Shown here one piece after another: positions 7,779 through 23,724 of a stretch of 35,309 bases of DNA. The position numbers and the translations under genes were made by a program. Location: the NCBI GenBank assembly GCA_964561695.1, contig CAZLQC010000005.1, forward strand, positions 1 through 35,309, written 5' to 3'. The first letter of the stretch is position 1, and each line of letters starts with the position of its first letter. Source of the stretch: an uncultured Bdellovibrionales bacterium (lineage in GTDB: Bacteria; Patescibacteriota; Minisyncoccia; Moranbacterales; UBA1568). The notes beneath the pieces are model-generated. The model was not told the DNA's origin. It saw nothing but the letters and a program-made list of their open reading frames with translations, and did not search any database.

Positions 7779-10700
7779 TTATCTAGCAATAACAGCTCCT
7801 GCCCCAGGAATCTTCTTGAAAAGAATGTACTTATTTCTTCCCGTGCGAATACGTACAAAACCTCTATCAACAATGGTTTCTTTTGGAATCTCCTGAACTG
7901 AACCGTGAACGGTTTTGAGAACTTCCACTTCTTGGAATATGCTTGCCTCTTCTCTGGCGAGTACCTCATCATCCCCATTGAGCTCGATTCTCATTTCTCT
8001 TTCACCCAAAGTGAAATGAGAAAGTACTTTTCTAGAATCTTTGAGTGAAACGTCTGTACGCTGAAGCTTAAACCCATCTAGATCCTCTTTCGAGAGGTTA
8101 TCTAATACTTCTGTCACTGTTTCTGGCGTAGTTTCATTTTTTTCAAAAGTCACCATACGCGAGCGATACCCATTGCCACTAGAAATTTCTCCTGAGTACT
8201 CATTTACTACATCTAGACCAAACTGCTTGGCAATAGTAGTGAGTGTATTTGTGTCACGAAAATCAAGTGAATAAATCATATTGACCACAGCTCTTCCACC
8301 AGACTTCAAAACTCGACTCATTTCTTTCAAGGCTTCCAGACGCTCATATTCCCCTTTACTTGGCACTAGCTTGGTATAATGAAGAGCTAGTGAGAGATTA
8401 ACATAGTCTACACTCCCACTTTCAAGCGGAATATCAGTGAAGCTCCCAACAATGGTCTCACTTTCTGGCGTTTTGTTAGCAAAGTGCTCTGGGTTGATAT
8501 CAAGACTGATGATATTGGAGCGCAAAGTATCTTTACTGTGCCTACGGAGCATTTCAGGTCCAGAAGCCAGATCTAGAATGCGCGGATTCTCTATTCCTTG
8601 TTTATTGGCCATTTCTGAAAGCACCGTTGCTACCACTCGACTAGCATTACTCTGATAACTCCTGCTTCCTAATTCACGGTAACAGTCCGCATACTCTGCA
8701 CCATGTTTCTCCAAAAAAGTACTAAATTTCTTCTCGCCAATTTCTTTGACTGAAGCAAAGATGCGATTCATCTTTTCGAATGAAGAAAAATAGTAATCAG
8801 CCAGTTCTGGATTAACTGACAGATCAGCTTTTTCGGCTTCTTCAGACTTTTCTAAAATCTCCATTTCCACTTCGGTAATTGGAATACCTTTGAGAAGTTT
8901 TTCGATAGCTCGGTGCTTGACTTGGATGTACTCATGTTTTCCTTCTTCGATAGTACCTTTGGTGAGAATAGTTCGTGATTCTACATCACCTTCGATACCG
9001 GGGCGGTAGACACGAGCCTGTTGCTGGTGCTTATCAGCTATAGTCCAGGGCTCATTATAAAAAATAATTTCCTGTCCTGCTGAATAGTCCACTGCCACAT
9101 CAGCAGTCTTACCACTCACTACAAGAAGTATTCGTTTATCACCTCTCTGAAACTCTTCCTGGACAGTCAGGCGCTCTTCTTGGGTAACACCTCCATGAAT
9201 GACTCTAACTTCTACCCCAGCTGGTAATTTGAGGTCTTGGATAATACCATCTTCTCCTCGGATAACATTAGAGATATAGTCGTTCACAAAAAGCACAGCT
9301 CTATCTTTGCTCACGAAAGCATTTTTCAAATCGTTATTGAGCATTTCCAGCTTACTACTTGGTACTCCAGGAGTAATATCCAAAAGTCTTGGGTTAAGCA
9401 AAAACTTTTGAAGCATTTGCATCTTTTCAGTTGGAGTAAGTTCATCCTCATCAAGCAACACCTGATAGATTTCTTCTTCACTTGGAGTAAGTTCAACTGA
9501 GCTTACTTGTTCGGTAAGGTTTGGCATTTCTAAGTGTTCGCCCAAACTCTTCATCTGGAGACGTGGGATGAGAAGCTGGCGAATATCCAGTAAGTCTCCA
9601 TGGATAATAGAGCGGGTCAAAGTGCGACTATCCGTCTCGGCAAAACGCTCTGGATACATGAGTTTTAAGAGCATGGCTACATCTTCTACCTTATTCGGTA
9701 CTGGAGTACCAGAAAGCATGGCAACATATTTTTCGTCCCTTTCTTTATTATCAGCAAGGCGGAGTAAGTGTTCCGAGCGTACACCAGTTTCTATATTCTT
9801 AAATTTATGGACTTCATCAACAATAAGCATCCCGTAATCTAAAGTCTCAAGTGCTTGTGTATATTCAGCAGTCAGACGTTCATGAGAGATAATAATGTAA
9901 TCATATAGACCTTTTTCTATACCATCCAACTGACTTACATCAGTGATCCGTAGTACTCTTGGCTCTTTCTTGAAATACCCCACCTGTTTACTATTTTCAT
10001 CTATCTTATCTGATAAATACCCCTGCCAAGTGTCTATTGCATTACTTGGTACTACTACTAAGGCTGTCTCTACACCAAGGTGTTCTTTAGCCAGAATAGC
10101 TGAAGCGCTCTTACCTGCCCCCATTTCATCAGCTATGAGAACCCGTTTCTTGGCTTCAATTTCTCGAATATTTATACGCTGATAGATATCAGGAAATTCT
10201 CGCCCTTCTTTGAGGCCATCTACCATTCCTACTGGTACCTCTACGCTCAAGATAGAGATATAGAACTTTTCAACACTTAAAATAGTCTGCATTAGCTCTG
10301 CGCTCGCAATATTTTGAGCTTCTGTACGCAGATTGTTGAAATAGTCTCGAAAGAGAGCTATGTTCTGTTCGATACCTAATTCTCTCTTAGATAGCGTCTT
10401 CTCCAAAGCATCTCTTTTAATCACCTCAGCCAGTCCTTCCATCAAACTTGGTGTGCCAAAGAGAGCTTCAGCTCCCTTGAGACTCTCTACAGAAAATGGT
10501 GCTGGGGTGAGTAGATAATCTCCTAGATACTCTGCTAGGATACTTTTCACTTTTTCTACTGGTATCCCCTGATACTCCGGATGGAGAGCATAGAGGATAT
10601 CGAGAGATTGAGAGGATCCAAAAAGAGAGATAAGATTTTGTATTCCTTTTAAGTCTTCTTTATTCTGAAACCTATTTTCTAATCTCTCTTTCAAAACTAA

Positions 10701-13592
10701 CTCACTGTTATTAACTTTCTCATCAAGAACTTGTTTTATTTGAGTTATAAGATCTGGATGGTAATGAACTACTATCTTTCTTGTTCCATCAAGATAGTCC
10801 CGAAACCACTCTGGATATGATTCTAGAGCCTGACTAGCTATATTTTTAATAACCCTTTCACTCGTTTCCAGCTTCTTGGCAACACCTAAATTTGTAAGCC
10901 ATCCTTCAGGCGCCATTGTAGGCCTTTCTGCTGCAATATCTTTTACTCTTTCTATAAGATCAGGATGATAGTGCTCAAAGATTTGACCTTTTTTGGATTG
11001 AAAATCTCGAAACCAATCTGGATGACTTTCTCTAAACTGATCGGCAATTTTTCTGAAGGCTGGCCTATTTAAGGATAAATGAGCAGCAGCAACTTCACTA
11101 GTCATCCAACCTACTGGGGCATATTCTGGTCTGTTGCTAATTTCTTCACGAATCTTCTCTATAAGATCAGGATGATAATACTCGTGTGATCTTCCAACTT
11201 TACTACTGTATACTTGAAACCACTCAGGGTGAGCGTCTCTAAATGAGTTTGCAATTTTTTCTGTCGTGTTTTGAGCTATTCCCAATTCATCTCCAGTTCT
11301 CCTATTTGTCATCCACCCTTCAGGAGCCTTATCAGCTCTAAGCGAAATTCTTTCTATTATTTTCTCTACTAAGTTGGGATGATAATGTGTAGAAACTTTC
11401 CTTGTTCCATCAAGATACTCCTGAAACCACTCAGGGTGAGCATCCTTAAACGGCTCAGCTATTTTTTTCACAAAAGCTTCTGCTGTCCCTAATGAATCAG
11501 CGATACCATTATTAGTTATCCACCCATCGGGTGCATACTCTGGTTTTTCAAAAAACTTCTTTTTAATTATCTGTATAAGGTCTGGATGACAATATTCACC
11601 AATATTATTATTCTTTGTAAGATACTCTCTGAACCACTCTGGGTGTGACTTTCGATATTGATCAGCAATTTCTTTACATGTGTGATGTGAACTATTTAAC
11701 TCTTGGGCTATTTCGCCAAAGGTACGCCACTCCACTGGCGGTTTTTCTGGTCTACGGGCAATCTCTTCTTGTATTTTGTGTACCAAGTCTGGGTGATAAT
11801 GCTCATTGACTCTTCCTGTTACAATTTCAAATTCCTGAAACCAGCCAGGTTGTGACTCTCGATATTGATCAGCGATTTTACTGCACGTTTGTTTACTTAT
11901 GTTAAGATCTTCAGCAATAGCACTGTTGGTAACCCATCCTTTCGGAGCTTTACTAGGTCTTTCAGAGAGTCCTTGTTGTATTTTTTCAACAAGGACTGGA
12001 TGATAATACTCAAAAACTTGGCTCTGTTTTGATTTGTATCCTTTAAACCACTCTGGATGAGTCTCTCGATACTGCTCAGCAATTTTTGCGCACACTTTAC
12101 TTTCTCGCCCCAGTTTCTTAGCAAGACCAGATAATGCTTCCCAGCCTTCTGGAACATATTCTGGCTCTTCAAGAAGCTTACCTCTAATTTGTTCTACAAG
12201 ATCTGTATGATAATGTTCTGTTGTTCTGCCTCCTCTATCCTGGTACTCTCCAAACCACTCGGGATGTGTTGCTCTATAAGAATTAACTAGGCTTTTAGTA
12301 AGATTAGTGCCTATACCAAGAACAGTAGCTACTGATATAGTAGTTAACCATCCTTCCGGAGCTTTATCAGGTCTATTGGCTAAAACTTCCCGGACTTTTT
12401 CAATGAGATCTGGATGGTGGTATTCTCTCAGAGAACCTGATCTGTCTTTGAACTCATGGAACCACTCGGGATGATTACTACGAAACGGCTCCACCACTTT
12501 TTTTACAAGGGTTTCACTTATCCCAAATTGACGGCTAGTAGCTACTTTAGTCATCCAACCATCAGGAGCATTCCTATGCTCAGCTCTTTGCTCTTTGATT
12601 TTAAGATTTTTCGTTGCAACTTCTTTTCTAGATTGCCTCAAGTTCTCGATATTTTGGAAAAGAACTGCTATAGCTTCAGGAGGGTAAAAAAGTACTGGGA
12701 CTCTGTACTGACCTTCAAACTTTTGCGGTATTTTAATTTCAGAATTACTAGAATACACATCTTTCAAAAGAAAACTCACGCGTGATAAACTTAGTCCTGC
12801 CTGTTGAGATAAATCTCTGATACTCATCCACCCCTCTGGAGGATACCCTACGCGTAATAAGGGATGTTGCTCTATTAACCGGACTAATTCCGGAGGGTAA
12901 TAGTAATGTCTTTTTCCCTCTGCAGAAATAAACTCTCTTGGAGAGAGATTCTTATCTTCTCGAAGAAAGTTTTTAATAAGAGGTCTAACTCGACTTTGGT
13001 TATTAACCGAAAGGCCTTTTTGAAGCTCACTCACACTTTTCCATCCTTCTGGAACTCCCTCACTAATCTTAACTCTATCAGGAAGGTGTGATTTAACGTA
13101 TTCCACAGCTTCATTAGAATGGTATTTTACCTTTATCCCTTTTATTAAAAGTTCCCTTGGAGAGTCAGCTGATTGAAAATCTTCATAATATTTCTTTAGA
13201 ATCTTACTGACAGTAGTGCGATCAAGCCCTAATTCTCTTGCTATAAGTCTAGTATTTTTTCTGTCTCCAATCTTAGATTCGTCACTCCTGAGTTTTTCAA
13301 TCTCGGAATTAATATATGAGACCACTTCAGGTGGATAATGTAAAAACTTTCTGCCTCTTACATCGCACATCCATTGCGGATCTTGTAATTCTTTATTTCC
13401 ATTATATAAGGCCTGGATCGCTTTCTCTACTGATCTTGTACTATTAACACCTTCAGTTAATTTAGCTACTGCTCTGAGAGTTAACCATCCTTCCTGAGCC
13501 TGTTCACTTTTTTCACCTTCAAAAGAAGCCCCTTCTGATGAACTGTTTTGTTCCGCTTTTTTAGGTTGTGGAATGTCTGGATTAAATGCCAT
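7779..13592 (-). CDS. Giant multidomain protein (1,937 aa): HTH-like repeat array + SNF2-family ATPase + class I SAM methyltransferase
   Basis: A single uninterrupted ORF with ATG at 13592-13590. SNF2 motifs: LIADEMGAGKS (I), IVDEVHKFKN (II), LSGTPVPNK (III), QQQARVYRPG (VI). Methyltransferase motifs: ILDLASGPE (motif I) and LKSGGRAVV (post-motif). See the sub-features below. Confidence 0.85.
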   Translation of the reverse strand: MAFNPDIPQPKKAEQNSSSEGASFEGEKSEQAQEGWLTLRAVAKLTEGVNSTRSVEKAIQALYNGNKELQDPQWMCDVRGRKFLHYPPEVVSYINSEIEKLRSDESKIGDRKNTRLIARELGLDRTTVSKILKKYYEDFQSADSPRELLIKGIKVKYHSNEAVEYVKSHLPDRVKISEGVPEGWKSVSELQKGLSVNNQSRVRPLIKNFLREDKNLSPREFISAEGKRHYYYPPELVRLIEQHPLLRVGYPPEGWMSIRDLSQQAGLSLSRVSFLLKDVYSSNSEIKIPQKFEGQYRVPVLFYPPEAIAVLFQNIENLRQSRKEVATKNLKIKEQRAEHRNAPDGWMTKVATSRQFGISETLVKKVVEPFRSNHPEWFHEFKDRSGSLREYHHPDLIEKVREVLANRPDKAPEGWLTTISVATVLGIGTNLTKSLVNSYRATHPEWFGEYQDRGGRTTEHYHTDLVEQIRGKLLEEPEYVPEGWEALSGLAKKLGRESKVCAKIAEQYRETHPEWFKGYKSKQSQVFEYYHPVLVEKIQQGLSERPSKAPKGWVTNSAIAEDLNISKQTCSKIADQYRESQPGWFQEFEIVTGRVNEHYHPDLVHKIQEEIARRPEKPPVEWRTFGEIAQELNSSHHTCKEIADQYRKSHPEWFREYLTKNNNIGEYCHPDLIQIIKKKFFEKPEYAPDGWITNNGIADSLGTAEAFVKKIAEPFKDAHPEWFQEYLDGTRKVSTHYHPNLVEKIIERISLRADKAPEGWMTNRRTGDELGIAQNTTEKIANSFRDAHPEWFQVYSSKVGRSHEYYHPDLIEKIREEISNRPEYAPVGWMTSEVAAAHLSLNRPAFRKIADQFRESHPDWFRDFQSKKGQIFEHYHPDLIERVKDIAAERPTMAPEGWLTNLGVAKKLETSERVIKNIASQALESYPEWFRDYLDGTRKIVVHYHPDLITQIKQVLDEKVNNSELVLKERLENRFQNKEDLKGIQNLISLFGSSQSLDILYALHPEYQGIPVEKVKSILAEYLGDYLLTPAPFSVESLKGAEALFGTPSLMEGLAEVIKRDALEKTLSKRELGIEQNIALFRDYFNNLRTEAQNIASAELMQTILSVEKFYISILSVEVPVGMVDGLKEGREFPDIYQRINIREIEAKKRVLIADEMGAGKSASAILAKEHLGVETALVVVPSNAIDTWQGYLSDKIDENSKQVGYFKKEPRVLRITDVSQLDGIEKGLYDYIIISHERLTAEYTQALETLDYGMLIVDEVHKFKNIETGVRSEHLLRLADNKERDEKYVAMLSGTPVPNKVEDVAMLLKLMYPERFAETDSRTLTRSIIHGDLLDIRQLLIPRLQMKSLGEHLEMPNLTEQVSSVELTPSEEEIYQVLLDEDELTPTEKMQMLQKFLLNPRLLDITPGVPSSKLEMLNNDLKNAFVSKDRAVLFVNDYISNVIRGEDGIIQDLKLPAGVEVRVIHGGVTQEERLTVQEEFQRGDKRILLVVSGKTADVAVDYSAGQEIIFYNEPWTIADKHQQQARVYRPGIEGDVESRTILTKGTIEEGKHEYIQVKHRAIEKLLKGIPITEVEMEILEKSEEAEKADLSVNPELADYYFSSFEKMNRIFASVKEIGEKKFSTFLEKHGAEYADCYRELGSRSYQSNASRVVATVLSEMANKQGIENPRILDLASGPEMLRRHSKDTLRSNIISLDINPEHFANKTPESETIVGSFTDIPLESGSVDYVNLSLALHYTKLVPSKGEYERLEALKEMSRVLKSGGRAVVNMIYSLDFRDTNTLTTIAKQFGLDVVNEYSGEISSGNGYRSRMVTFEKNETTPETVTEVLDNLSKEDLDGFKLQRTDVSLKDSRKVLSHFTLGEREMRIELNGDDEVLAREEASIFQEVEVLKTVHGSVQEIPKETIVDRGFVRIRTGRNKYILFKKIPGAGAVIAR
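8200..8700 (-). other. Class I SAM-dependent methyltransferase domain (Methyltransf_11-like) within the giant ORF
   Basis: Motif I ILDLASG at 8559-8579, then ISLDINP (acidic residue at the end of beta2), DYVNLSLALHY and LKSGGRAVVN. I saw no (D/N/S)PP(Y/F/W) motif. Confidence 0.7.
8958..10205 (-). other. SNF2 ATPase core (SNF2_N + helicase_C) within the giant ORF
   Basis: Walker A DEMGAGKS at 10107-10130, DEVH at 9807-9818, motif VI QQQARVYRPG at about 9001-9030. Confidence 0.85.
10704..13493 (-). repeat. Coding tandem repeat: about 13 HTH-like modules (nine canonical 69-aa / 207-nt units at 10704-12566, four degenerate units at 12567-13493)
   Basis: Canonical unit: P(E/D)GW.T....A..LG......KIA..(F/Y)R..HPEWF.(E/D)(Y/F)........EHYHPDL(I/V)E.I......P..A. 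The HPEWF codons recur about every 207 nt (about 10805, 11015, 11220, 11425, 11635, 11840, 12050, 12255, 12462). Degenerate N-terminal units carry YPPE in place of YHPDL. One has a classic HTH, LIARELGLDRTTVSKILKKY. Confidence 0.85.
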
Positions 13593-13622
13593 CTTAGTCT
13601 TCTACAATATCCTCAGTATAAC

Positions 13623-13650
13623 AAAAAACCACCCGTTTGGGTGGCTTTTT
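13623..13650 (-). terminator. Intrinsic terminator between the ATPase gene and the giant ORF
   Basis: CCACCC-gttt-GGGTGG hairpin (13629-13644) flanked by A6 and T5 runs. On the minus strand it is followed by TTTTTT. It lies 17 nt after the stop of the ATPase gene. Confidence 0.8.
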
Positions 13651-13660
13651 AATAATCTTT

Positions 13661-16138
13661 TTATCCTTTCGTTTTCAAACGATCAAGAATTTCTTGATTC
13701 ACTAGTTTGGTATCTCGTCCATAACGAAGACGAGAAAGCTCTTTGAGAGCCACCGCTACTTCACGACTCCCCTGCGTTGGTGGAAAAGTTTTCATATTGA
13801 AGGGCTTGGTCAGCTCATTATTCATCAAGAGGCGGGCGAAACAGTTGAAGTTATCAACATTCACAATATCAGCGGCTGTAAAAACTGGGGTAAACTGCTT
13901 CTCCAAGAACTCAGCATCTTCTGGACCAACACGGAAGGTGACGAGAGAACCTACGTTACCAAAGACTGCTTTAGAGATATCTTCCTTGAGTTGTCCGATG
14001 AATTGATGAGCTAGCATCAAAGTCAGTTTATACTTTCTAGCTTCAGAAAGTATCTGAGCAATAGAGCTCGTCGTGACATTCTGGAATTCATCCAGGTACA
14101 AGCTAAATTCCTGACGCTCGTTCTCTGGGGTGTCGACTCGTGACAAGGCAGCCATCAAGAGTTTCCCAACTATCACCATCCCCAGGAGACGAGCATTAAT
14201 CTCCCCGATCTTCCCCTTGGAAAGATTAACTAAGAGAATCTTCTTGGTATCCATGATTTCACGGAAGTTCAATGTGCTTTTCTGTTGACCAATAATAGGC
14301 CTCACAAGATCATTAGAGGTAAATGGGGTTAATTTAGAGGTGATGTAGGGAACCATATTAGCCAGTGCGCCCTCACCTCCTGCCTTCTCAGCTTCATTTT
14401 GCCAAAAATCTCGTACTATCGGATTCTGACAGAAACGGAGCTTCATCCGACGAAAATCCTCATCAGCTAATACCTTAGAGATTTCCATCAGGGTAGATCC
14501 GCTCTCTGGGTGATCCATGATAAGAAGCATGGCATTGCGCATATACTGCTCAAACATAGGGCCTCCAGTAGCTTTGAGATCATAGAGCTGATCAAAAATA
14601 CCGATCATCTCATTGATAACAAAAGTCTTTTGCTCAGGATACGCTGGATCGTACTCAAGCATATTCATACCGAGAGTGCGCTCTACATCACTTGGGTCAA
14701 AAATAATGACATCCTGAGCCCGTTCTTTGGGGATACAGGCCAGAATGTCCTCAATAGCATCACCATGTGGATCAAGAAAACAAAAACCCCTGCCCGCTAT
14801 GGCATCGCGTTTAGCAATTTCCTGAAGAAAGTTTGATTTACCCACACCTGTCTGCCCAATAACATAGAGGTGTCGAAGACGATCTTTATCACCGATACGA
14901 ATATCGGTTTTGACCCCTCGATACTCATTGTAACCAAGGAGCGTCCCTTCGGTCGGTACATTGATTGGTGGTGGTGCCGCCCCCGCTTTCAGCCACTTAA
15001 TCTTCGGTGTCTCAGTGGTAGAGATAGGAAAGTGAAAAATACCAGCAATCTCTTCGGTATTCAGCAAAAAAGCATGCTCATCGTCAAAGTTCCGAAAGAT
15101 ATAATGGTAGGCTGCATCACGAGTCTTGAGACGCTTACGAACACGAAAGCGATTTACATCAGGATTTTCAAATTGACCAAAAGCACTCTCTATCTGACCA
15201 AGGATCTGTTCAGCTCGGGTCTGTGTCGTGGCAGAGGCCAACAAACGCACATTGACACGAAAAGCCCCTTTACTCGTCTTGTCTTCAATAGACTTGATCA
15301 GATCTTGATCTTGAGGAGTAAGTTGAATAGGTGGCTTTTCTATTTGAGAATTATTTGAATTAGTTGGATTAAAGCCACTAATCACTCCCTTACCTACTTC
15401 TTTACCAAAAGACTGCAGTTTGCGGTTAGTGCCAAGGTCTCGCAGTTGCTTCCCTTCTTGAAGACTGCGAGCTACCGTACGACCTTCGTGACGCCAGGCA
15501 TCTCCAGCTGGCGCTAGCACCACTTGGATAGCAGCACCCTCATCAAGGGTAGCCAGTTTACTCAAAGCATTCGAGAGTTCATTAAGTGGGTCCACCCCCA
15601 GGCTCTGATAGGTTCGTAACGGCAAAGCATGGCTATGTGACAATTGAAGCTCCGTGATGGCTACGTGTCCGCCAGGGGTAAAAATAGTGTAGTCAGGGAT
15701 GCGCTCCAGATGTGCCTGAGGAAAGAAGCTGTGAATCTGCTTCTCCACACTCTCTCGAAATACCCTCGGCACTGCTACTAAGAAAAAAATTTCCTCGCTC
15801 GTAGCTGGATTAGCAATCTCAAGGACGACCGTAGGCGCGTGATAAAGAAATCTCTGGAAAAAATTACCCGGGTGCTTGAGTCCAGTAAGAGAAACGAGGA
15901 GCTGTTCCATCGCGGCAATCTCTTCTTTCCAAATATCACCCTTATCAGCTCCTCCGTCGGTACGTTTTTGTGGACGAGCTACTTTGACTACTTCAAGATC
16001 AAGTTCTAGTGATTTGTTGATTTGTTTACGAAAGCCATAAAAAGTCTTCACCAAAAGCAGGCCTCCTGAAAAAAGAGTGAGGAACCCGAGGGCCCACGCC
16101 AAAGGAACTAGAATGGTGTTAATGGTTATTTCTATCAT
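13661..16138 (-). CDS. Membrane-anchored FtsK/HerA/VirD4-like (type IV coupling-protein-like) P-loop ATPase
   Basis: The ORF track starts at TTG 16156, but AGGAGG (16142-16147) followed by ATG 16138 is the better start. N-terminal TM hairpin. Walker A GQTGVGKS (14834-14857) followed by FLDPHGD. Walker B LYLDEFQ (14084-14101). C-terminal LMLAHQFIGQL...GNVGSLVTFRVG is typical of the TraD/VirD4/HerA clade. Confidence 0.7.
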   Translation of the reverse strand: MIEITINTILVPLAWALGFLTLFSGGLLLVKTFYGFRKQINKSLELDLEVVKVARPQKRTDGGADKGDIWKEEIAAMEQLLVSLTGLKHPGNFFQRFLYHAPTVVLEIANPATSEEIFFLVAVPRVFRESVEKQIHSFFPQAHLERIPDYTIFTPGGHVAITELQLSHSHALPLRTYQSLGVDPLNELSNALSKLATLDEGAAIQVVLAPAGDAWRHEGRTVARSLQEGKQLRDLGTNRKLQSFGKEVGKGVISGFNPTNSNNSQIEKPPIQLTPQDQDLIKSIEDKTSKGAFRVNVRLLASATTQTRAEQILGQIESAFGQFENPDVNRFRVRKRLKTRDAAYHYIFRNFDDEHAFLLNTEEIAGIFHFPISTTETPKIKWLKAGAAPPPINVPTEGTLLGYNEYRGVKTDIRIGDKDRLRHLYVIGQTGVGKSNFLQEIAKRDAIAGRGFCFLDPHGDAIEDILACIPKERAQDVIIFDPSDVERTLGMNMLEYDPAYPEQKTFVINEMIGIFDQLYDLKATGGPMFEQYMRNAMLLIMDHPESGSTLMEISKVLADEDFRRMKLRFCQNPIVRDFWQNEAEKAGGEGALANMVPYITSKLTPFTSNDLVRPIIGQQKSTLNFREIMDTKKILLVNLSKGKIGEINARLLGMVIVGKLLMAALSRVDTPENERQEFSLYLDEFQNVTTSSIAQILSEARKYKLTLMLAHQFIGQLKEDISKAVFGNVGSLVTFRVGPEDAEFLEKQFTPVFTAADIVNVDNFNCFARLLMNNELTKPFNMKTFPPTQGSREVAVALKELSRLRYGRDTKLVNQEILDRLKTKG

Positions 16139-16156
16139 ACCCTCCTGTATGTACAA

Positions 16157-16546
16157 TTATTTTAGCTGTCCTTCAAGTTTTTCGTGTAAGCGCTCAATCA
16201 GGGTGTCACGAAACACATCGAGAGCGTAGAAGTCTTCAAGAGTGCGTGCCACGCTCACAGCATGCACTACTCCCTTGGTATCAGCCAAAGAAAGAAGCTT
16301 AGTAACACGCTCTTCTTCATCGACGGAAGAGAGGCTCGCGGCATCATCCTTGACCTGGTTCTGCGTAGTTGTTTGTAGACTGGCTGTATGGGTATCGATT
16401 TTCTTTAAGAGTTCGCCCATTCGTTCGCTCTGGTGTTCTGGAGCTTTCTCAGGAGACAGCTCTTTCTCCATAAGACTCGTCGCTTCAGGCATCCCCGTAA
16501 TACCTTCAACCGGTGATCCACCAGTTATTTCAATACGTTCATCCAT
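16157..16546 (-). CDS. Small acidic hypothetical protein (129 aa)
   Basis: ATG start. Its stop abuts the RBS of the ATPase gene. No recognisable domain. Confidence 0.5.
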   Translation of the reverse strand: MDERIEITGGSPVEGITGMPEATSLMEKELSPEKAPEHQSERMGELLKKIDTHTASLQTTTQNQVKDDAASLSSVDEEERVTKLLSLADTKGVVHAVSVARTLEDFYALDVFRDTLIERLHEKLEGQLK

Positions 16547-16573
16547 ATTCTTTCGTATTAATAGCTTACTTGT

Positions 16574-16891
16574 TTAGACAGCTGCTACCCCCATATACTT
16601 ATCCATATCAGAACGAAATTCCGTCACTACCTCACGAATAAAAACTGGGTAATTGGGGATTTTTTCTGCCAAAAAGGCTTCTACCGTATCTGCTTTTGCT
16701 TTACTCTCGAGTAATTTCTCATACTCTTTGGCTCCGTGAGCTCCCAACTTATCAATAGTCGCCAAGAAAAGCCTCTTCAGGAAGACCTCTCCAATCTTTC
16801 CTATCAAATCATCTTGTTTTTCTGGTGATAGATCTTGGAGGCCAAAAATTTCTATAATTTCTTGACGATGCTGTTCTAATACTTGGTTCAT
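16574..16891 (-). CDS. Small helical hypothetical protein (105 aa)
   Basis: Its ATG overlaps the TGA of the upstream 1,061-aa ORF (ATGA at 16888-16891), which suggests translational coupling. No recognisable domain. Confidence 0.55.
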   Translation of the reverse strand: MNQVLEQHRQEIIEIFGLQDLSPEKQDDLIGKIGEVFLKRLFLATIDKLGAHGAKEYEKLLESKAKADTVEAFLAEKIPNYPVFIREVVTEFRSDMDKYMGVAAV

Positions 16892-19800
16892 ACGCGTATA
16901 AGTTTATCGAGGTTAAATTTATTTTCTGGAGATTCAAAACCGAGAGTCACCATGCGTCGAGTATAGGCCGCTACTGTTTCGTTTCTTCCAGGTTCTGCTA
17001 CTGTACCATAAGCACTGACTGCCAATTCCTTAAATCTATTTATTCTACTAATCTGATCTGTGCCGAGGATAGCTCGATTCTCTATAAGAGTCTCTCCTGG
17101 CGTATTGGCTGCCAAGACGACATCAGTCATTTTCACAGTAGGCGCATTGAGGATACTATCGCGAAAGCGTAAGTCATTGGTGGCAAAAATAGTTCTGCGG
17201 GTATCTTCCAATTCTTTGTAGTAGACAGCCCTTTCTACCCTCCCCTCACCAAGCAGTTTAGCTGTTCCGTCAACTGGCTCATTCAAGTTTTCGCTCTCAG
17301 CAAATGAGTTTTCGTCTACCTGGGCCAGTAAGTCTTCTGGTTTGCCTCCTCCGTCACCTCCTCCAGTCGTATCTTCTAGCGCAAATGCGTTGGGTGTCTC
17401 AACGGTAGCTGTTGCTGGTACCTCTGGCACTCCGAAAACTTCTGGTGTTACAGGAACGGATACTTCTGGCACTGGAGCGTCGACTATCTTCCCGTCTAGA
17501 ATCTCCTGCAGTTCTTCTTGACTCACCAGACTACCAAGCTTGAGAGTGTCATCAGCATAGATAGTTTCTACATTACCACTTGGAAATCCAGCCAGCGTTC
17601 GAGCTTCTGGAGAGAGGGCTTCCAGTTTAGTAGCGATCAAGTTCTGTAATGAAGTAATGACCCTTGTCTTCTCTGCTCCATTGAGCTCAGATGGCACTGA
17701 TTTCTCAAGTACTCCCCAGAGTCCTTTGCGACTATCAGCTGTAGTGAGAGTGTATGTTTCCGGGAGCGTGGCAGTAGAGACGGGTACTTCTGGAATCTCA
17801 GCTGTCGTAGAGGGAACTGGTGTCTCTGCAGAGCCTCCTCCTACCTGATCATAAGACATGGTCGGGGCATTACCTGGTAATGATGTCTCTCCTCCTGATG
17901 CAAGAGCAGTCTCAGCTGATGGCGTCACGGATGTAGCGGCATCATTGGCATGATGAAGATAAGAGAACGCTTCTGAGAGAGCTGCCCCCCCGAAGGCTCC
18001 CCCGAGACGCAAAGACCACTTACGGAAAAAAGTTTTCCTTCGCTTCTTGTCTATCTGTTTATCTATGCTTTGATTCTCCAAATCCAGGAACGTATTCAGT
18101 TTTTTGGCAAGTTCTTCTGGAGAGGTCCCTTCTTCATTTTCAATAAAATTTTCAATCTCAGTGGTGACTTTTTTCTCTTGGCGTCCACTAAAAAACTTTT
18201 CTGCAGCCGCGTCGAGCGTCACTGCTCCACCCAAGCCAGCACAAAACCTTCTCACCGCTACTGCTCCAATGGCTATGCCTGCTCCTGCCCCACCAATAGA
18301 GCCTAAGGCTATAGAACTTCCAAAGAGGCCAGCGCCAAGTAGCATCTTTTTTCCTGTTGAAAGTCCATTGTACTTCTCTCCGATCCAATCAAGTTTAGCT
18401 CCCAGCTTGCCTGATAGACTACTCTTTTCTTTCTCGGCATAAAGATTAGCTAAAGCGGCCCCCTCAGCCACCTTGAAGTACACTCCGAGTTCCAGTATTC
18501 CCTGAGCCTTCTCTTTCTCACCCAAAAGAGTAATCTGGGCAATGTCGGCTTCTTTTTTCTCGACGAGAAGTGCTTGATATTTTTCACGAAGCATGATCAG
18601 ATCTGCATCCTCAGTCTTTTCAAGCCAGGTAAAACTGCGCTTGAGACGCTCCCACTGAGTGGTCATTTCGACATCTTTTGTGACGTAGGCCAAACGAGCA
18701 GAGGCGATTCTTTCTTCAAGAGTACCCTCTCCTTCCAACTTCTCTCTAGTTTCTTGAGTTGCTTGGATAACCACTCCCTCTTCTGCAGACTGTTCTACAG
18801 ACACTGGCGCTGTCCCCAAAATCAAGGCTTCTGGGATAGCCTGAGCGGTCTCCTTGGCGACATCACTCACTTCGATACTTACTGGTCTTGGACCAGTCAC
18901 TTCGGGCTCTATATTTTCTCGAATCAGTGTGTTAATCTGCTCCTCTGATCCATCAAGATCGAGAAATCGATTAACTGCCTCCTGGCGAGCCGCTTCACTC
19001 CCCTTGAGGCGCTCTTCGAAACTTACTGCCTTGGCTTTGAGATCAAGGCTCTGTTCTTTGAGTGACTCAAGTACTGGATCAACAACTACATCTTTCTTGC
19101 GCCTACTCGAAGTAGCTTGTGGCTCTCGGTGAGCTATCTGATCATCTACTGTTTTAATATCTGCCTGAACAGCAGCAATATTTCTTTTTAAAGCTTCGAT
19201 ACGATTCTCTTCTTGAAGAATAATCGTTCCTGCTCTACTCTTCTCTTTTTCTTTACGCTCTATTTCTTGGGCTTTTTTCTTTTCCTCAATAGCCAGCCTT
19301 TTCTTAACGTCAAGCATGGCTACTCCTTTTTCTTTTTTCAATTGAGCAATGTCTTGTAGTACAGCTGGCCTCTCAGGAGCTGGAACTTCCTTGATATTCT
19401 GAAGCAACTCATGAAGCTTCGCCTCATCTGCAGTAACTACAGGAGTCTTGGCTACTTCCTCCTCCTTTATGGTTTTTAGAACCTCTCGAATAGCATCCAG
19501 CCCGTCTTTGGTTGTATTGCCTGTATCATTGATGACTCCCTCAGGCTTTACCTCACTCATTGCTATTGGTGCCATCTTTTCATCTACTCTTTTTGTTTTT
19601 GCTATCTGCTCTTTGGTGGCAGCAATCTGTCTCCCAATGGCATTCAATTCCCAAATAGGCCTCGTAATCTCACCTGCCTGCTTCTCTAGTTGGCGTAAGC
19701 TCACCTCCAAAGAAGCGCTCTCTGGACGTTCTGCATGCAGATCAAGGTTGGCTTGTACTTTTTCTGGGTCAGTGACTGGCACTGGTACTGGATTACTCTC

Positions 19801-20073
19801 TCCAATACCAACCAAAACCGTCTCGGGAGTACTCACCGCTACTTCTACCGGTACAAAATCTTCTTGTTCTACGAATGGATTAGCTACCGTTGCCTCTAAA
19901 ACTTTAGTTGGAGTGACTGGTATTTCTGTGGACAATTCTAGTGAGACTGGCTCTGCCAGCTTAACATCTTTACCATCAGTAAAAAGAAGGTCCCCCGTCT
20001 TAATAAGTGGGGACTCATTCCGATCTGTGGGACTCCTTCTTAAACGCCCAAATACTCTATCGAACGCTGGCAT
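16888..20073 (-). CDS. Large coiled-coil protein with glycine-zipper membrane segments (1,061 aa), unknown function
   Basis: ATG preceded by AAGGAAAAGGA. There is a Lys/Glu-rich coiled coil (about 19083-19323). Gly/Ala-rich hydrophobic segments lie at about 18214-18345 (MLLGAGLFGSSIALGSIGGAGAGIAIGAVAV...) and about 17953-18012. The C-terminal region is Pro/Thr/Val-rich and contains GGGDGGG. Confidence 0.6.
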   Translation of the reverse strand: MPAFDRVFGRLRRSPTDRNESPLIKTGDLLFTDGKDVKLAEPVSLELSTEIPVTPTKVLEATVANPFVEQEDFVPVEVAVSTPETVLVGIGESNPVPVPVTDPEKVQANLDLHAERPESASLEVSLRQLEKQAGEITRPIWELNAIGRQIAATKEQIAKTKRVDEKMAPIAMSEVKPEGVINDTGNTTKDGLDAIREVLKTIKEEEVAKTPVVTADEAKLHELLQNIKEVPAPERPAVLQDIAQLKKEKGVAMLDVKKRLAIEEKKKAQEIERKEKEKSRAGTIILQEENRIEALKRNIAAVQADIKTVDDQIAHREPQATSSRRKKDVVVDPVLESLKEQSLDLKAKAVSFEERLKGSEAARQEAVNRFLDLDGSEEQINTLIRENIEPEVTGPRPVSIEVSDVAKETAQAIPEALILGTAPVSVEQSAEEGVVIQATQETREKLEGEGTLEERIASARLAYVTKDVEMTTQWERLKRSFTWLEKTEDADLIMLREKYQALLVEKKEADIAQITLLGEKEKAQGILELGVYFKVAEGAALANLYAEKEKSSLSGKLGAKLDWIGEKYNGLSTGKKMLLGAGLFGSSIALGSIGGAGAGIAIGAVAVRRFCAGLGGAVTLDAAAEKFFSGRQEKKVTTEIENFIENEEGTSPEELAKKLNTFLDLENQSIDKQIDKKRRKTFFRKWSLRLGGAFGGAALSEAFSYLHHANDAATSVTPSAETALASGGETSLPGNAPTMSYDQVGGGSAETPVPSTTAEIPEVPVSTATLPETYTLTTADSRKGLWGVLEKSVPSELNGAEKTRVITSLQNLIATKLEALSPEARTLAGFPSGNVETIYADDTLKLGSLVSQEELQEILDGKIVDAPVPEVSVPVTPEVFGVPEVPATATVETPNAFALEDTTGGGDGGGKPEDLLAQVDENSFAESENLNEPVDGTAKLLGEGRVERAVYYKELEDTRRTIFATNDLRFRDSILNAPTVKMTDVVLAANTPGETLIENRAILGTDQISRINRFKELAVSAYGTVAEPGRNETVAAYTRRMVTLGFESPENKFNLDKLIRV

Positions 20074-20195: not shown

Positions 20196-21785
20196 ATGAC
20201 CAAGCAACACGTTCTCGTGTGGTTCACTCTTACGCTCATTCTCCTTGGCGCTCTCTTTGCGCGAAGCTATCATATCAACTCTCTTCCAACCGGCCTCTAC
20301 CCTGATGAAGCCGTCAATGCCGTTGATGCACTCCAGGCTATTGAAAGTGGCCACTACAAACTCTTCTATCCAAATAACTACGGCCGTGAGGGTCTTTTTA
20401 TTAACCTCCAAGCACTTTCCCTTAAAACCTTTGGCTACACCATAGGCGCCCTCAAACTCTGGTCAATCATTTTTGGCACCCTCACCGTTCTTGGGGTCTA
20501 TCTCCTTGGTCGTGAACTCTTCCACCGTCGTGGAGCCGCTTTATTGGGAGCTTTCTTTATCGCCTCAAGCTATTGGGCCATCAACTTCTCTCGTATTGGC
20601 TTCCGAGCCATTATGACATCATTCCTACTCAGCTTTGCCTTCTTTTTCTTCTTCAAAGGCCTCCGTACGAGACGCTACCTGGATTTTGCCCTTTCTGGAC
20701 TCTGTGTGGGACTTGGACTTCATACCTATATCGCCTTTCGCCTCACCCCCCTCATCCTTGTGGCCCTCATGCCTTTTCTTATTCTTTCCTACGAAAACTT
20801 TCTCAAGCGCTACTGGAAACAAGGCCTGGTGTTTGCTCTAACAGCATTTATTGCAGCCGCACCAATGCTCTATCACTTTTTTATTGCTCATCCAGAAGAC
20901 TTTGCCTCACGCTCCACCGCTATTTCTGTCTTTGCACCCGAAGTCAATCATGGCAACCTTCCTGGCACCCTCCTCAAAACATTTGGTCTCAGCCTTATCA
21001 AGTACAACTTCTGGGGTGATCAAAATTGGCGCCACAACTATCCTCCCTATCCTGTACTTGACCCCATCACCGGTTTCTTCTTTCTAGGGACCCTCTTGTT
21101 TCTTATTTCACAGACAGTGAATCTCATCGGTAGGCGTCTACGTCATCGTGATCGTGATACTCGTCTAGTACGTAATGTCTTTCTTTTGGGAGCTTTCTTT
21201 ATCATGCTGATGCCCGAATTTTTTACCTCGGAAGGGCTTCCTCATGCACTCCGTGCCATCGGAACACAGGTACCTGTCTTCTTAATGGCTGGTCTTGGAG
21301 CTTTTTGGCTGTACCAAAGAATTAGACGTATTCCTTTCCAATCAAGAGCCGTATTACTCTCACTTTTTTTCCTAGCTCTGGGTCTGAGTGCCAGCTTCAA
21401 CCTCACTAAATACTTCGTCTTTTTTGCTAATAGCACTGATCAGCGTGGGGCTTTCAACGAGGACTACACCAACATGGCTAACTACCTCATCAGCCTACCT
21501 CCGGAAACTCACAAATATGTGTATACCAATGCTGGCGGCACTGATATAGATAATGGCCTCCCAGTTACTGCAGAGTCTGTCTACTTCCTCACCTACGGAA
21601 AAGTAGAGAATCTAACCTTCCTGAAACCAGATACTACCCTTACAACACCCGCTGTTGTCATTCTTATGCGTCATGATGATGCTATCGCTAAACGCTTGCT
21701 CGAACGTTATCCGACAGGCTCTCTCAAAACTATCTATATCAACCCTACCTCCCCTATTGGTTTTCCCGTCATTATCCTTCCCTAA
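20196..21785 (+). CDS. GT-C fold glycosyltransferase, PMT/ArnT (GT39/GT83-like) family
   Basis: Polytopic membrane protein. The first loop motif YPDEAVNAVDA (DE motif) and the overall layout are typical of COG1807 enzymes. Confidence 0.7.
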   Translation: MTKQHVLVWFTLTLILLGALFARSYHINSLPTGLYPDEAVNAVDALQAIESGHYKLFYPNNYGREGLFINLQALSLKTFGYTIGALKLWSIIFGTLTVLGVYLLGRELFHRRGAALLGAFFIASSYWAINFSRIGFRAIMTSFLLSFAFFFFFKGLRTRRYLDFALSGLCVGLGLHTYIAFRLTPLILVALMPFLILSYENFLKRYWKQGLVFALTAFIAAAPMLYHFFIAHPEDFASRSTAISVFAPEVNHGNLPGTLLKTFGLSLIKYNFWGDQNWRHNYPPYPVLDPITGFFFLGTLLFLISQTVNLIGRRLRHRDRDTRLVRNVFLLGAFFIMLMPEFFTSEGLPHALRAIGTQVPVFLMAGLGAFWLYQRIRRIPFQSRAVLLSLFFLALGLSASFNLTKYFVFFANSTDQRGAFNEDYTNMANYLISLPPETHKYVYTNAGGTDIDNGLPVTAESVYFLTYGKVENLTFLKPDTTLTTPAVVILMRHDDAIAKRLLERYPTGSLKTIYINPTSPIGFPVIILP

Positions 21786-21822
21786 AAAATTATTATATAA
21801 CTAATTACTAGACCAGAATTTT

Positions 21823-23724
21823 ATGGAGTTTTTACAAAAGCATAGCCTGAAAATAGCCTTCGCTATCCTCGTCTTCTTCTTTGCCTTCAATCTTGTCATT
21901 TCCGACCAAGAGGCTACTACTATGGATGAACGGGCTCATATCCCCTCAGCCTATAGTTACGTACGCTATGGTGATATGCGACTTAACCCTGAACACCCCC
22001 CTCTCCTGAAAGATCTTGCTGGACTTCCCCTTCTCGCTTTACAACCTGAATTTCCCCTACAATCAGAGGAATGGCAACATGGTATCAATGCCCAATGGGT
22101 AATGGGTCAAAAGTTCATCAGTTGTCTCGTTCCCGAAGAAGCCTGTAATGACGCTGATCAGATCACTTTCTGGTCTCGAGTACCGATTGTCTTAGTAGCA
22201 GTACTGATGGGTATATTTCTCTTTGTCTGGACTCGTTCACTAGCTGGTCGAGGAGCCGCCCTGTTTGCTCTCACTCTCTATGCTTTTGATCCGAATATCA
22301 TTGCTCACAGTCACTTTGTGACTACTGATATCGGTATTGCCGCTTTCCTCTTCTTCTCTTTCTACTACTTTGTTCGTTTTCTCAAGGAGCCTACCCCACG
22401 AAATGTCATCACTTCTGGTATCTGGTTGGCGCTAGCCAACCTGGCTAAATTTTCAGCAGTACTCCTCTTCCCTATTTTCGGTCTCTTTGTTCTCCTTTAC
22501 GCCTTAAGTATTGCTAAGCCTAAAGAAGCTACTCTCTCAACCTTCCTCTTCAAAATCAAACAAATCTGGCTCTATGGGTATAAGTTTACGTTGAGTGTAG
22601 CTCTCTGCTTTGTCATCATCTGGGTCTATTACTACCCACATACCATGAATATGCCTGGTATTAAGCTGGTTGAGGTGGCTAGTGTCATGTTCCCAGACAA
22701 ACAAGCTGGACCATTCGCTAAAAGCTTCATCGGTGCAACCTATGACAATAGCTTTCTCAAACCATATTCTGCCTACTTCTTAGGAGTCTTCATGGTCTTC
22801 GGTCGTGTTGCTGGCGGTAACACTTACTACTTCCTAGGACAAGTCTCTAATCAAGCGTCTCCCTGGTATTTTCCGGTCGTCTTTATTCTTAAGAGCACCC
22901 TCCCATTCCTCTTTCTCCTTGTGGCAACCACTTTTTACAGTCTCTACCGTATAGTTAAGAGCTTTAAGGATGAAAAAGTGACTAGCTTAGCAAAACTCGG
23001 TACTTTTCTTGGTCAGTCACTCAGACGCAAGACAGCTCAGTACGTAGGTGTTTTCTTTGTCCTCTTCTACAGCTTCGTCAGTATTACAGGCAATCTCAAT
23101 ATTGGCTTCCGTCACTTGTTCCCAATTTTACCCTTTCTCTTCATGTTTATCGCTAAAGTGGTTTTTGATATCATTAAGCGTCAGACCAATCCAATTGCTC
23201 AGAAAATTAGCTACAGTATCCTCGGAGTCTTTACCTGTATTATCATAGCTACTCCCTTTCTCTCCTATCCTCACTTTGTATCCTACTTCAACGGTGCTTT
23301 TGGTGGACACGCCAATGGCTACCGCTACGTCACTGATTCTAACTACGACTGGGGTCAAGACTTGAAGCGCCTTAAGACTTTTGTTGATACCCACAACCGT
23401 TGTAGTACTGGTCAAGCTACCGCCAAAGATGACTGTACTCTGGCTAGTGGCCTGCCACCTATCGACAAACTCCGCATAGACTATTTCGGAGGAGCAACCC
23501 CTGAATACTACTTCAAAGACATTATGATTCCTTGGCATGCCTATACACCTCATGAGGCTGGCTGGTATGCTGTTTCCATTGGCTTTATGCAAGAAAGTGT
23601 TAGCGTGGATCCCGGCTACAAAGCAGATAGCTATGACTGGCTGGCCGAGAACTTCACTCCGGTCACTAGAACTGGTGACTCAATCTTTGTGTATTATGTA
23701 CCAGAAGTGCCCGCTGGTAAGTAA
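21823..23724 (+). CDS. GT-C fold phospholipid-carrier-dependent glycosyltransferase (PMT_2-like)
   Basis: MDERAHIPSAYSY...PEHPPLLKDLAGLPLL matches the DExxH / hPPL first-loop signature. It has at least 10 TM segments and a C-terminal soluble domain. Confidence 0.7.
   Translation: MEFLQKHSLKIAFAILVFFFAFNLVISDQEATTMDERAHIPSAYSYVRYGDMRLNPEHPPLLKDLAGLPLLALQPEFPLQSEEWQHGINAQWVMGQKFISCLVPEEACNDADQITFWSRVPIVLVAVLMGIFLFVWTRSLAGRGAALFALTLYAFDPNIIAHSHFVTTDIGIAAFLFFSFYYFVRFLKEPTPRNVITSGIWLALANLAKFSAVLLFPIFGLFVLLYALSIAKPKEATLSTFLFKIKQIWLYGYKFTLSVALCFVIIWVYYYPHTMNMPGIKLVEVASVMFPDKQAGPFAKSFIGATYDNSFLKPYSAYFLGVFMVFGRVAGGNTYYFLGQVSNQASPWYFPVVFILKSTLPFLFLLVATTFYSLYRIVKSFKDEKVTSLAKLGTFLGQSLRRKTAQYVGVFFVLFYSFVSITGNLNIGFRHLFPILPFLFMFIAKVVFDIIKRQTNPIAQKISYSILGVFTCIIIATPFLSYPHFVSYFNGAFGGHANGYRYVTDSNYDWGQDLKRLKTFVDTHNRCSTGQATAKDDCTLASGLPPIDKLRIDYFGGATPEYYFKDIMIPWHAYTPHEAGWYAVSIGFMQESVSVDPGYKADSYDWLAENFTPVTRTGDSIFVYYVPEVPAGK

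Follow-up and report, generated by a model that had tools for sequence, protein, structure and literature searches.

The window analysed here, a stretch of 35,309 nucleotides (nt) making up positions 1 to 35,309 of contig CAZLQC010000005.1 (assembly GCA_964561695.1), is a chromosomal piece of a Candidatus Moranbacteria genome, within the Patescibacteria or candidate phyla radiation (CPR). It carries four co-directional open reading frames (ORFs) on the minus strand, the last of which encodes an ATPase of the type IV coupling protein (T4CP) family. Gene 1 (20073..16888), known from its ORF and translation, encodes a helical membrane protein of 1,061 amino acids (aa); gene 2 (16891..16574) encodes a 105-aa acidic protein with a near-threshold Pfam match to DUF5663; gene 3 (16546..16157) encodes a 129-aa acidic protein, hereafter p129, which profile searches identified as a conserved partner of the ATPase; and gene 4 (16138..13661) encodes the 825-aa ATPase, assigned from Pfam, a profile search of PDB sequences and an AlphaFold2 model. 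Genes 1 and 2 share an ATGA stop/start overlap at 16888-16891, an arrangement for translational coupling, and the 18-nt gap between genes 3 and 4 (16139-16156) contains an AGGAGG at 16141-16146, 2 nt before the ATG. An alternative TTG start at 16156 would lengthen gene 4 to 831 aa, and gene callers in relatives choose the 825-aa form. Directly after the ATPase stop codon, before a giant ORF that we return to below, an intrinsic terminator on the minus strand (13622..13651, AAAAAGCCACCC-AAAC-GGGUGGUUUUUU) closes the operon; its RNA folds at -19 kcal/mol (z = -3.79), and 0/200 shuffles fold as well. The tight packing of the genes, the overlap and the gap, the composition of the first three products (charged helices and Gly-zipper segments in the 1,061-aa protein, acidity in the two small ones) and the ATPase motifs had all been reported in a first-pass annotation made from the sequence, and each proved correct on checking. 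Since the four ORFs are also predicted by gene callers in relatives and the ATPase has many homologues, they are real genes and not chance frames.

Related loci were collected by a scan of one genome per species, which gave at least 600 genome matches, all of them Patescibacteria among the matches listed. Eighty loci were kept for comparison, from Moran-, Uhr-, Falkow-, Komeili-, Portnoy-, Niyogi-, Taylor-, Zambryski-, Nomura-, Vogel- and Azambacteria and other Paceibacterota. The comparison set as a whole comprised 84 related loci, the profile and tblastn searches covered 85, and a survey for VirB4 and relaxase genes within 10 kb on either side of the ATPase covered 83. The four-gene synteny is kept across the Moranbacteria clade, including the pairing of the ATPase with the coiled-coil protein that the first-pass annotation had proposed to check. 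Compared with the orthologues in the closest relative (L001) and in two further relatives (L005 and L004), the ATPase is 94.7%, 71.9% and 67.5% identical, respectively, which makes it as conserved as MraY (93.6% and 63.4%, not matched in L004). Its protein identity of 95% to L001 holds even though the DNA is only ~78% identical. The corresponding values are 82%, 44% and 36% for p129, 85%, 44% and 38% for the DUF5663 protein, and 58% and 31% for the 1,061-aa protein, which was not matched in L004. The GC content of the locus is similar to that of its flanks. The four genes are a conserved, vertically inherited chromosomal operon of Candidatus Moranbacteria.

The Walker A motif of the ATPase (GQTGVGKS, 14834..14857, minus strand) and its Walker B motif (LYLDEFQ, 14081..14101, minus strand) include residues G428, G431, K434, D683 and E684, and these and several others are invariant in 27 diverse members of the family that are 31-48% identical to the window protein, so the enzyme is presumably active. 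The AlphaFold2 model (predicted local distance difference test score, pLDDT, 86.4; predicted template-modelling score, pTM, 0.77) comprises a helix at residues 3-45, an alpha/beta domain at 48-370 and a nucleotide-binding domain at 399-825 with a helical insert at ~502-630. The hydrophobic N-terminal segment (EITINTILVPLAWALGFLTLFSGGLLLVKTF..., 16004..16132, minus strand) had been described in the first-pass annotation as a transmembrane hairpin; in the model residues 3-45 form one continuous helix, which points to a single membrane anchor that passes the membrane once.

Direct Pfam matches of the ATPase were weak but specific, and included TraG-D_C, T4SS-DNA_transf, TrwB_AAD_bind and DUF87, while the best NCBIfam match was to a VirD4-like family, far under its cut-off. 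The signal was more consistent when the 27 members were scanned against Pfam: TrwB_AAD_bind, TraG-D_C and DUF87 each matched 26/27, T4SS-DNA_transf 14/27 and FtsK_SpoIIIE 5/27 (weak, best E = 1e-3). In the window protein the TrwB_AAD_bind match spans residues 662-739, not the helical insert. A profile of the family searched against PDB sequences found TrwB (1.6e-8), DotL (2.5e-5) and HerA (4e-3). Foldseek comparison of the model with the PDB returned TrwB at E = 1e-13 with a target TM-score of 0.65, as well as Cagbeta and HerA (4d2i, 7e-12). The alpha/beta domain corresponds to DUF8128 (PF26449), assigned to the window protein through its homologues: precomputed Pfam annotation places it on 120/120 listed close homologues, as well as on the orthologue that is 95% identical. 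For DUF8128 and DUF5663, the literature searches returned no papers.

Three other identities were considered for this enzyme. The best E-values in Foldseek (1e-16) came from full-length alignments to TrwK/VirB4, with a TM-score of only ~0.3; these alignments score best because of the additional N-terminal domain of ~320 residues. The N-terminal family of VirB4 (CagE_TrbE_VirB) matched 0/27 members in the Pfam scan, no VirB3-like membrane gene lies upstream (p129 has no membrane segment), and the plasmid homologues described below are accompanied by a separate VirB4. A HerA identity was rejected: the DUF87/HerA match in Pfam is marginal (9e-5, 23.1 bits against a 23.2-bit cut-off), the NCBIfam HerA match (1e-4) falls far under its cut-off, both are weak beside the T4CP signal, and no NurA or other nuclease gene neighbours the ATPase in the 83 surveyed loci. 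Finally, an FtsK/SpoIIIE identity is opposed by the weak 5/27 matches, by the lack of any FtsK gamma domain match in the 27 members and by the single membrane helix. The profile searches that the first-pass annotation had suggested for separating T4CP, HerA and FtsK thus favour T4CP, and of its label 'TraD/VirD4/HerA-like' the VirD4/TraD part is borne out by Pfam, the PDB profile and Foldseek, while the HerA part is not.

The genomic context of homologues outside the Patescibacteria points the same way. We found full-length homologues (residues ~80-820, 24-28% identity) on 248 plasmid records, among them 122 from Streptomyces, 38 from Bacillus, 11 from Sulfolobus and others from haloarchaea. 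On a 24.7-kb B. subtilis plasmid (NZ_CP032854), the homologue is an 886-aa 'DUF87 domain-containing protein' encoded first in the transfer operon, followed by a replication-relaxation protein, conjugal transfer proteins, TcpE and a VirB4-like ATPase. An Embleya plasmid encodes, in this order, PrgI, a VirB4-like ATPase, the T4CP homologue, a replication-relaxation protein (relaxase) and an NlpC/P60 protein. On a Natrinema plasmid the homologue comes after a large conjugal transfer protein, and a pilin gene belongs to the same cluster. These contexts identify the family as the coupling protein of conjugation modules of monoderm bacteria and archaea (FATA-type). Sequence, structure model and the context of non-CPR homologues together establish that the window ATPase belongs to the T4CP family (TrwB/VirD4/TraD), of the monoderm conjugation type.

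Homologues also occur in phages. The Bacillus phage proteins form PHROG 5156, which matches the window ATPase at E = 2.3e-78 over residues 102-820. Foldseek matches included gp156 of phage G (6e-47), another at 1e-40, and a protein of phage JL with a query TM-score of 0.66. The large Bacillus myoviruses with full-length structural homologues are phage G (JN638751, 91048-93207), SP-10, CP-51, JL, Shanette and Goe26; phage G encodes a second related ATPase, gp155, in the adjoining gene (Foldseek E = 9e-16).

The closest associate of the ATPase is p129. Besides the window, an iterated profile search found 29 related loci in which a p129 homologue is encoded just before the ATPase, with gaps of -3 to 152 nt. 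About 30 further loci (from Nomura-, Taylor- and Zambryskibacteria, among others) carry the same domain fused in frame to the N-terminus of the ATPase, giving ORFs of 908-971 aa in which the profile covers residues ~13-130 (E = 4e-13 to 9e-6, plus one weak partial match at 4e-4). The first iteration of the profile had drifted onto ATPase ORFs; once the ATPases were separated out, the N-terminal fusions proved real, and independent gene calls of 907-935 aa in a protein library agree with them. Eight of the fused proteins were inspected, and none has a hydrophobic segment in its first ~300 residues, bar two sub-threshold peaks inside the fused domain, which suggests that the partner domain replaces the membrane helix. 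By the Rosetta-stone argument, the fusion also suggests that p129 associates physically with the ATPase and that it is located in the cytoplasm. The conserved core of p129 in the alignment is its C-terminal ~55 residues, and the family has no Pfam or PDB match. Both small proteins of the operon are acidic, with D+E/K+R counts of 19/14 and 26/15. Upstream or fused, p129 is a constant companion of the ATPase.

A different arrangement was seen in ABY1-type lineages (Uhr-, Falkow- and Komeilibacteria; L021-L031, L043 and similar), where another conserved protein of ~164 aa, with the motif ...KQKGEE..KI...WL..IPG.NKFFLEQEAKIKTDKI, is encoded directly upstream of the ATPase. We considered whether this could be a divergent p129 and rejected the idea, as hhalign gave a probability of 0.2%.

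The other two products of the operon are less constant. The 1,061-aa protein begins with ~575 variable, charged, helical residues without a signal peptide, including a stretch at ~residues 240-390 with up to 52% charged residues; Gly-zipper hydrophobic segments follow at 577-626 and 686-706; after these come linkers rich in Pro and Thr and, at the C-terminal end, two small domains. It matched no family in Pfam, NCBIfam, PADLOC or PHROG. The missing signal peptide, a Lys/Arg cluster before the last hydrophobic segment and the Pro/Thr-rich linkers after it indicate an N-in, C-out topology, and the linkers may, on these sequence features, be extracellular. Homologues occupy the same position in thirteen loci, essentially the Moranbacteria clade, and are 58-64% identical where the ATPase is 95% identical and 22-31% where the ATPase is ~70%. 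Word-indexed searches with the single sequence and with the alignment retrieved the same eight close homologues, and the named ones are all 'hypothetical'. AlphaFold2 modelled residues 442-1061 with a pLDDT of 59, helical through 452-715. A LysM-type wall-binding domain was considered and set aside: LysM matched 1/10 homologues at E = 0.01, and the model had no Foldseek match below E = 0.8.

The 105-aa protein falls just short of the DUF5663 (PF18908) threshold (E = 1.1e-4, 23.2 bits against a 23.7-bit cut-off) over 81/84 model positions, and its orthologues in L004 and L005 match the family above threshold. DUF5663 was found in seventeen loci, four of them outside the Moranbacteria clade, and always near the ATPase. 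In three loci (L012, L027 and L065) it forms a pair, in a different gene order, with a large protein of 439-1,045 aa in which a charged coiled coil and Gly-rich membrane segments occur, and in L080 the genes for DUF5663, the partner protein and the ATPase stand in a row. The large proteins of L012, L027 and L065 were not accepted as homologues of the 1,061-aa protein, since neither hidden Markov models (HMM) nor BLAST detects a relationship; their architecture is merely analogous. The 1,061-aa protein and DUF5663 are fast-evolving accessory genes of the Moranbacteria clade.

The ATPase itself is far more widespread. It has >2,000 close homologues, and an exhaustive HMMER search found 5,611 clusters (50% identity) with E<1e-30; the nearest homologues that carry source names are labelled Moranbacteria or Patescibacteria. 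Around the operon the window encodes MreB, MurA, MurD, FtsQ, HolB, two GT4 glycosyltransferases, two PMT_2 glycosyltransferases, MraY, RmuC and a DUF192 protein. Synteny with HolB, FtsQ, MraY and RmuC is conserved, and the region is not a fragment of an integrative and conjugative element (ICE), a case the first-pass annotation had allowed for. In other Paceibacteria, secY-adk-map precede the ATPase, which is followed by ndk (16 loci), an RNase J-like beta-CASP gene (14) and dnaX (13). Where the ATPase is fused (L039, L047-L049, L051, L055-L058, L060, L067, L072, L076, L083 and others, ~16 Paceibacteria loci), ndk lies directly downstream at a median of 56 nt, and the T4CP-like motor is wedged between two nucleotide kinases, with secY-adk-map upstream. 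The ATPase is a strongly conserved chromosomal core gene in Patescibacteria, set among housekeeping genes.

As the first-pass annotation had noted, the window contains no VirB4, relaxase or pilin gene. The survey of 83 loci extends this observation: a phmmer search of limited sensitivity, with three VirB4-like sequences and one relaxase as queries, found no VirB4- or relaxase-like ORF within 10 kb on either side of the ATPase. According to the part of Quinonero-Coronel et al. (2025, PMC12102498) covered here, only 148 of 5,713 T4CP genes in Patescibacteria lie near virB4, the T4CP being normally distant, and 13 of the 15 Moranbacteria genomes among the covered rows of its Table S1 carry VirB4. 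Given both figures, a missing VirB4 says little in a window of 35 kb, and it is weak ground for the minimal apparatus that the first-pass annotation had deduced from the missing type IV secretion system (T4SS) parts. With its T4CP signatures, its chromosomal location and no virB4 nearby, the window gene fits the 'T4CP far from virB4' class of that paper.

Our leading interpretation, to which we would give an even chance, is that the ATPase recruits substrate, DNA or protein, and energises its transfer through a distal, relaxase-less patescibacterial T4SS. The ATPase would form a membrane-associated hexameric motor, and p129 would be a cytoplasmic adaptor or regulator at its N-terminal side, in a role comparable to that of CagZ towards Cagbeta or TraM towards TraD. 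The DUF5663 protein and the 1,061-aa Gly-zipper protein would be lineage-specific membrane partners, and the T4SS that receives the substrate would be encoded elsewhere in the genome.

Several points weigh against this interpretation. The architecture of this ATPase is not that of canonical T4CPs, in which two membrane helices are present and a large N-terminal alpha/beta domain is lacking. The fused form found in many Paceibacteria has no membrane helix, and its gene lies between map and ndk, which looks more like housekeeping than secretion. The 1,061-aa protein has neither a recognisable fold nor demonstrable T4SS homology, and Foldseek found no match below E = 0.8 for its modelled part (residues 442-1061). 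The tie between this ATPase and a distal VirB4 system is a connection that we infer, and the physical interaction of p129 with the ATPase is a probable one deduced from a single kind of sequence evidence, the gene fusion. Lastly, the covered part of PMC12102498 reports that epibiotic growth of S. epibionticum did not require its t4cp homologue, although it did require other T4SS genes, and the authors left exaptation possible.

In an alternative, which keeps the idea of the first-pass annotation but drops the giant ORF, the operon is its own machine: the T4CP-like motor, the Gly-zipper coiled-coil protein and the DUF5663 and 129-aa adaptors would make up a stand-alone, VirB4-independent translocon of the envelope, which might export protein or move DNA between cell and host. 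The four genes share one orientation, show translational coupling and end at a terminator; a large coiled-coil, Gly-rich membrane protein and DUF5663 recur beside the ATPase in several lineages in varied gene orders; no VirB4 was seen within 10 kb in the 83 loci; and the literature leaves room for exaptation of the T4CP. We nevertheless consider this unlikely, at perhaps one chance in five, as most Patescibacteria loci have neither the large protein nor DUF5663 beside the ATPase. The large protein, moreover, has no channel-like or known fold and evolves very fast, and the fused ATPases that were inspected lack a membrane segment. We know of no T4CP that translocates substrates without a VirB4-type channel.

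Equally unlikely, in our judgement, is that the ATPase has nothing to do with secretion and was instead exapted to work on nucleic acid inside the cell, for example in chromosome or DNA handling at division or in DNA uptake for nucleotide salvage. It is conserved to an extreme degree, much like MraY, and its setting is one of core genes, both in other Paceibacteria (secY-adk-map upstream, with ndk directly downstream in 16 loci and dnaX and the RNase J-like gene nearby) and in the window (FtsQ, HolB and the Mur genes). Those fused forms that were inspected are soluble, large Bacillus phages encode full-length homologues although they do not conjugate, and the S. epibionticum homologue is non-essential for epibiosis in the covered part of PMC12102498. 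Gene neighbourhood, however, is weak functional evidence in compact CPR genomes, the FtsK-type signal is weak (5/27) with no gamma domain detected, no NurA or other nuclease partner accompanies the ATPase as in HerA systems, and the closest characterised relatives are all conjugative coupling proteins.

Somewhat less probable again than either of these is an ancient exaptation. Here the DUF8128-T4CP, once a conjugative coupling motor, and its 129-aa partner would have become a core, VirB4-independent machine of Patescibacteria, anchored and extended in Moranbacteria by the Gly-zipper coiled-coil envelope protein and DUF5663, and moving nucleic acid (e.g. importing DNA for nucleotide salvage, cf. 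the adk/ndk neighbourhood) or proteins at the interface between epibiont and host.

The idea that the gene is an orphaned coupling-protein gene left by the decay of an ICE or plasmid draws on the plasmid-borne conjugation genes among the homologues outside the CPR and on the lack of other T4SS genes nearby, and it is effectively refuted: Moranbacteria with ATPases 67-95% identical all show the same chromosomal synteny, the protein (95% identical, against ~78% for DNA) is under strong purifying selection and has invariant catalytic residues, GC at the locus is like that of the flanks, and the window contains no integrase, relaxase, tRNA, attachment sites or mating-pair-formation module. Scans of the window for Rfam families and tRNAs found none.

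The giant ORF downstream of the operon (7779-13592, minus strand; 1,937 aa, ATG at 13592) bears on a further reading. In its N-terminal half a repeat of 207 nt (69 aa) occurs at least nine times in tandem, with the motif ...PEGW...HPEWF...EYHHPDLIEKI... and helix-turn-helix (HTH)-type Pfam matches; an SNF2 helicase follows at ~residues 1137-1590 and an S-adenosylmethionine (SAM) methyltransferase at ~1650-1800. PADLOC matched it to ZorD (1.9e-18), to DpdE and DrmD and weakly to mad2 and mad1. Together with the terminator and a short leader, it makes up a lineage-specific indel of ~5.9 kb outside the operon's module (7784..13682, minus strand): blastn against L001 shows that the flanks abut in the relative, where the ATPase stop codon lies 3 nt from the stop of a convergent 827-aa gene. 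GC is 0.39-0.41 in the indel against ~0.44 in its flanks, and no transposon-like ends or target duplication were found at it. Tblastn detected no homologue of the giant ORF in the 84 related loci, bar a repeat-only protein of 679 aa in another Moranbacteria metagenome-assembled genome (MAG) (L009, 15652-17691, ~3.6 kb downstream of the ATPase), which consists of the 69-aa repeats without SNF2 or methyltransferase; the repeat module thus appears to circulate independently in the clade.

The first-pass annotation had placed the operon directly upstream of the giant ORF, which is right as to position, and had proposed that the giant protein, or DNA bound by it, is the cargo of the ATPase. The link between the two fails. 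No full homologue of the giant protein occurs in the related loci, and it is lacking even in the relative with the 95%-identical ATPase, so the expected co-occurrence, which did hold for the coiled-coil protein, breaks down for the giant ORF; in the window it stands behind a strong terminator in a low-GC indel. We therefore rejected it as cargo or partner. The giant SNF2-methyltransferase ORF is an insertion unrelated to the operon, and it may be a mobile or defence-type gene.

A defence island that would join the ATPase, as a HerA/MADS-like defence ATPase, to the adjacent SNF2-methyltransferase protein can point to a PADLOC mad8 match of the ATPase (9e-12), to the ZorD, DpdE, DrmD, mad2 and mad1 matches of the giant ORF and to the low-GC indel in which that ORF lies, yet it is contradicted for the ATPase and has next to no probability, because in all 84 related loci the ATPase operon occurs and the giant ORF does not accompany it, the terminator separates the two genes, the HerA matches are marginal (E = 1e-4 or weaker) and the ATPase is a core gene of the phylum. 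As the two genes do not co-occur elsewhere, we judged the mad8, mad1 and mad2 matches to be generic P-loop and methyltransferase similarity.

Beyond the giant ORF lies the convergent gene (5279-7774, plus strand), which in the window encodes 831 aa, has no Pfam family and has one predicted membrane helix at ~528-546. A convergent gene follows the ATPase at a median of 222 nt in eight Moranbacteria-clade loci. It is conserved in place in these eight loci and is fast-evolving, with 70% identity where the ATPase has 95%.

Two further observations concern the rest of the window. Divergent from the operon, at 20196-23724 (plus strand), are the two tandem PMT_2 (dolichyl-phosphate-mannose-type) glycosyltransferase genes, a pair that is conserved in place in L001-L003, L005 and L004. 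The most conserved protein of the region, above MraY and the ATPase, is a 201-aa protein without a Pfam match (4519-5124, minus strand), which shares 99.5% identity with the L001 orthologue and 84% with the L005 one. Several TPA_asm MAG records that carry the locus (L006-L009, L022, L024 and others) are titled 'uncultured Bdellovibrionales', 'Gammaproteobacteria' or 'Saccharibacteria'; synteny and 95%-identical genes of the Moranbacteria type suggest that these titles are unreliable.

Patescibacteria live in dependence on other cells, and no T4SS other than theirs is known to be required for growth. The ATPase is of a known kind, and the 'orphan' status of T4CPs in Patescibacteria was reported in PMC12102498 (2025). 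The partner domain is apparently new; in the literature searched and in the covered part of PMC12102498, which gives counts, we found no description of this domain or its fusion, of the lost membrane anchor, of the accessory pair of DUF5663 and the Gly-zipper protein, or of the housekeeping neighbourhood. The preprint of Wang et al. makes no statement on VirD4. The conserved and previously unannotated partner domain defines a functional unit and offers a target for interaction studies, the motor appears to have lost its membrane anchor in part of the phylum, and the fast-evolving, lineage-specific membrane protein module could be the part that lies in the envelope or faces the host. Recognising the giant SNF2-methyltransferase protein as an independent insertion and not as cargo removes a misleading lead. 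These handles bear on the role of the abundant 'orphan' coupling-protein genes in Patescibacteria (PMC12102498, PMC12857230).

Among known systems, the coupling proteins of monoderm conjugation (mating-pair-formation class MPF-FATA) resemble the window ATPase, with full-length similarity over DUF8128 and the ATPase domain, the same Pfam signatures and the same size. Their genes, however, are plasmid-borne and stand beside relaxase, VirB4, VirB3 and VirB6-like genes, whereas the window gene is chromosomal, vertically inherited and without T4SS neighbours, and its partners (the 129-aa protein, DUF5663 and the Gly-zipper protein) set it further apart. The PHROG 5156 proteins of Bacillus phages have the same two-domain architecture and are ~20% identical; they are phage-encoded, and no 129-aa partner is known for them from this analysis. 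HerA and FtsK/SpoIIIE belong to the same P-loop superfamily, with HerA scoring far below the T4CPs. TrwB of R388, Cagbeta of H. pylori and DotL of Legionella, T4CPs with solved structures, share with the window ATPase the type of nucleotide-binding domain, and the helical insert that the model places in it may be a counterpart of their all-alpha domain; the window family is only ~16% identical to them, has one membrane helix or none instead of two, and carries the extra DUF8128. Small helical partners such as CagZ, IcmS/W and TraM are a known theme of the T4CP family, and p129 is unrelated in sequence to any T4CP partner whose structure has been solved. Soluble T4CPs that are anchored by a partner also exist, as in the case of TraJ of pIP501 (PMC12857230).

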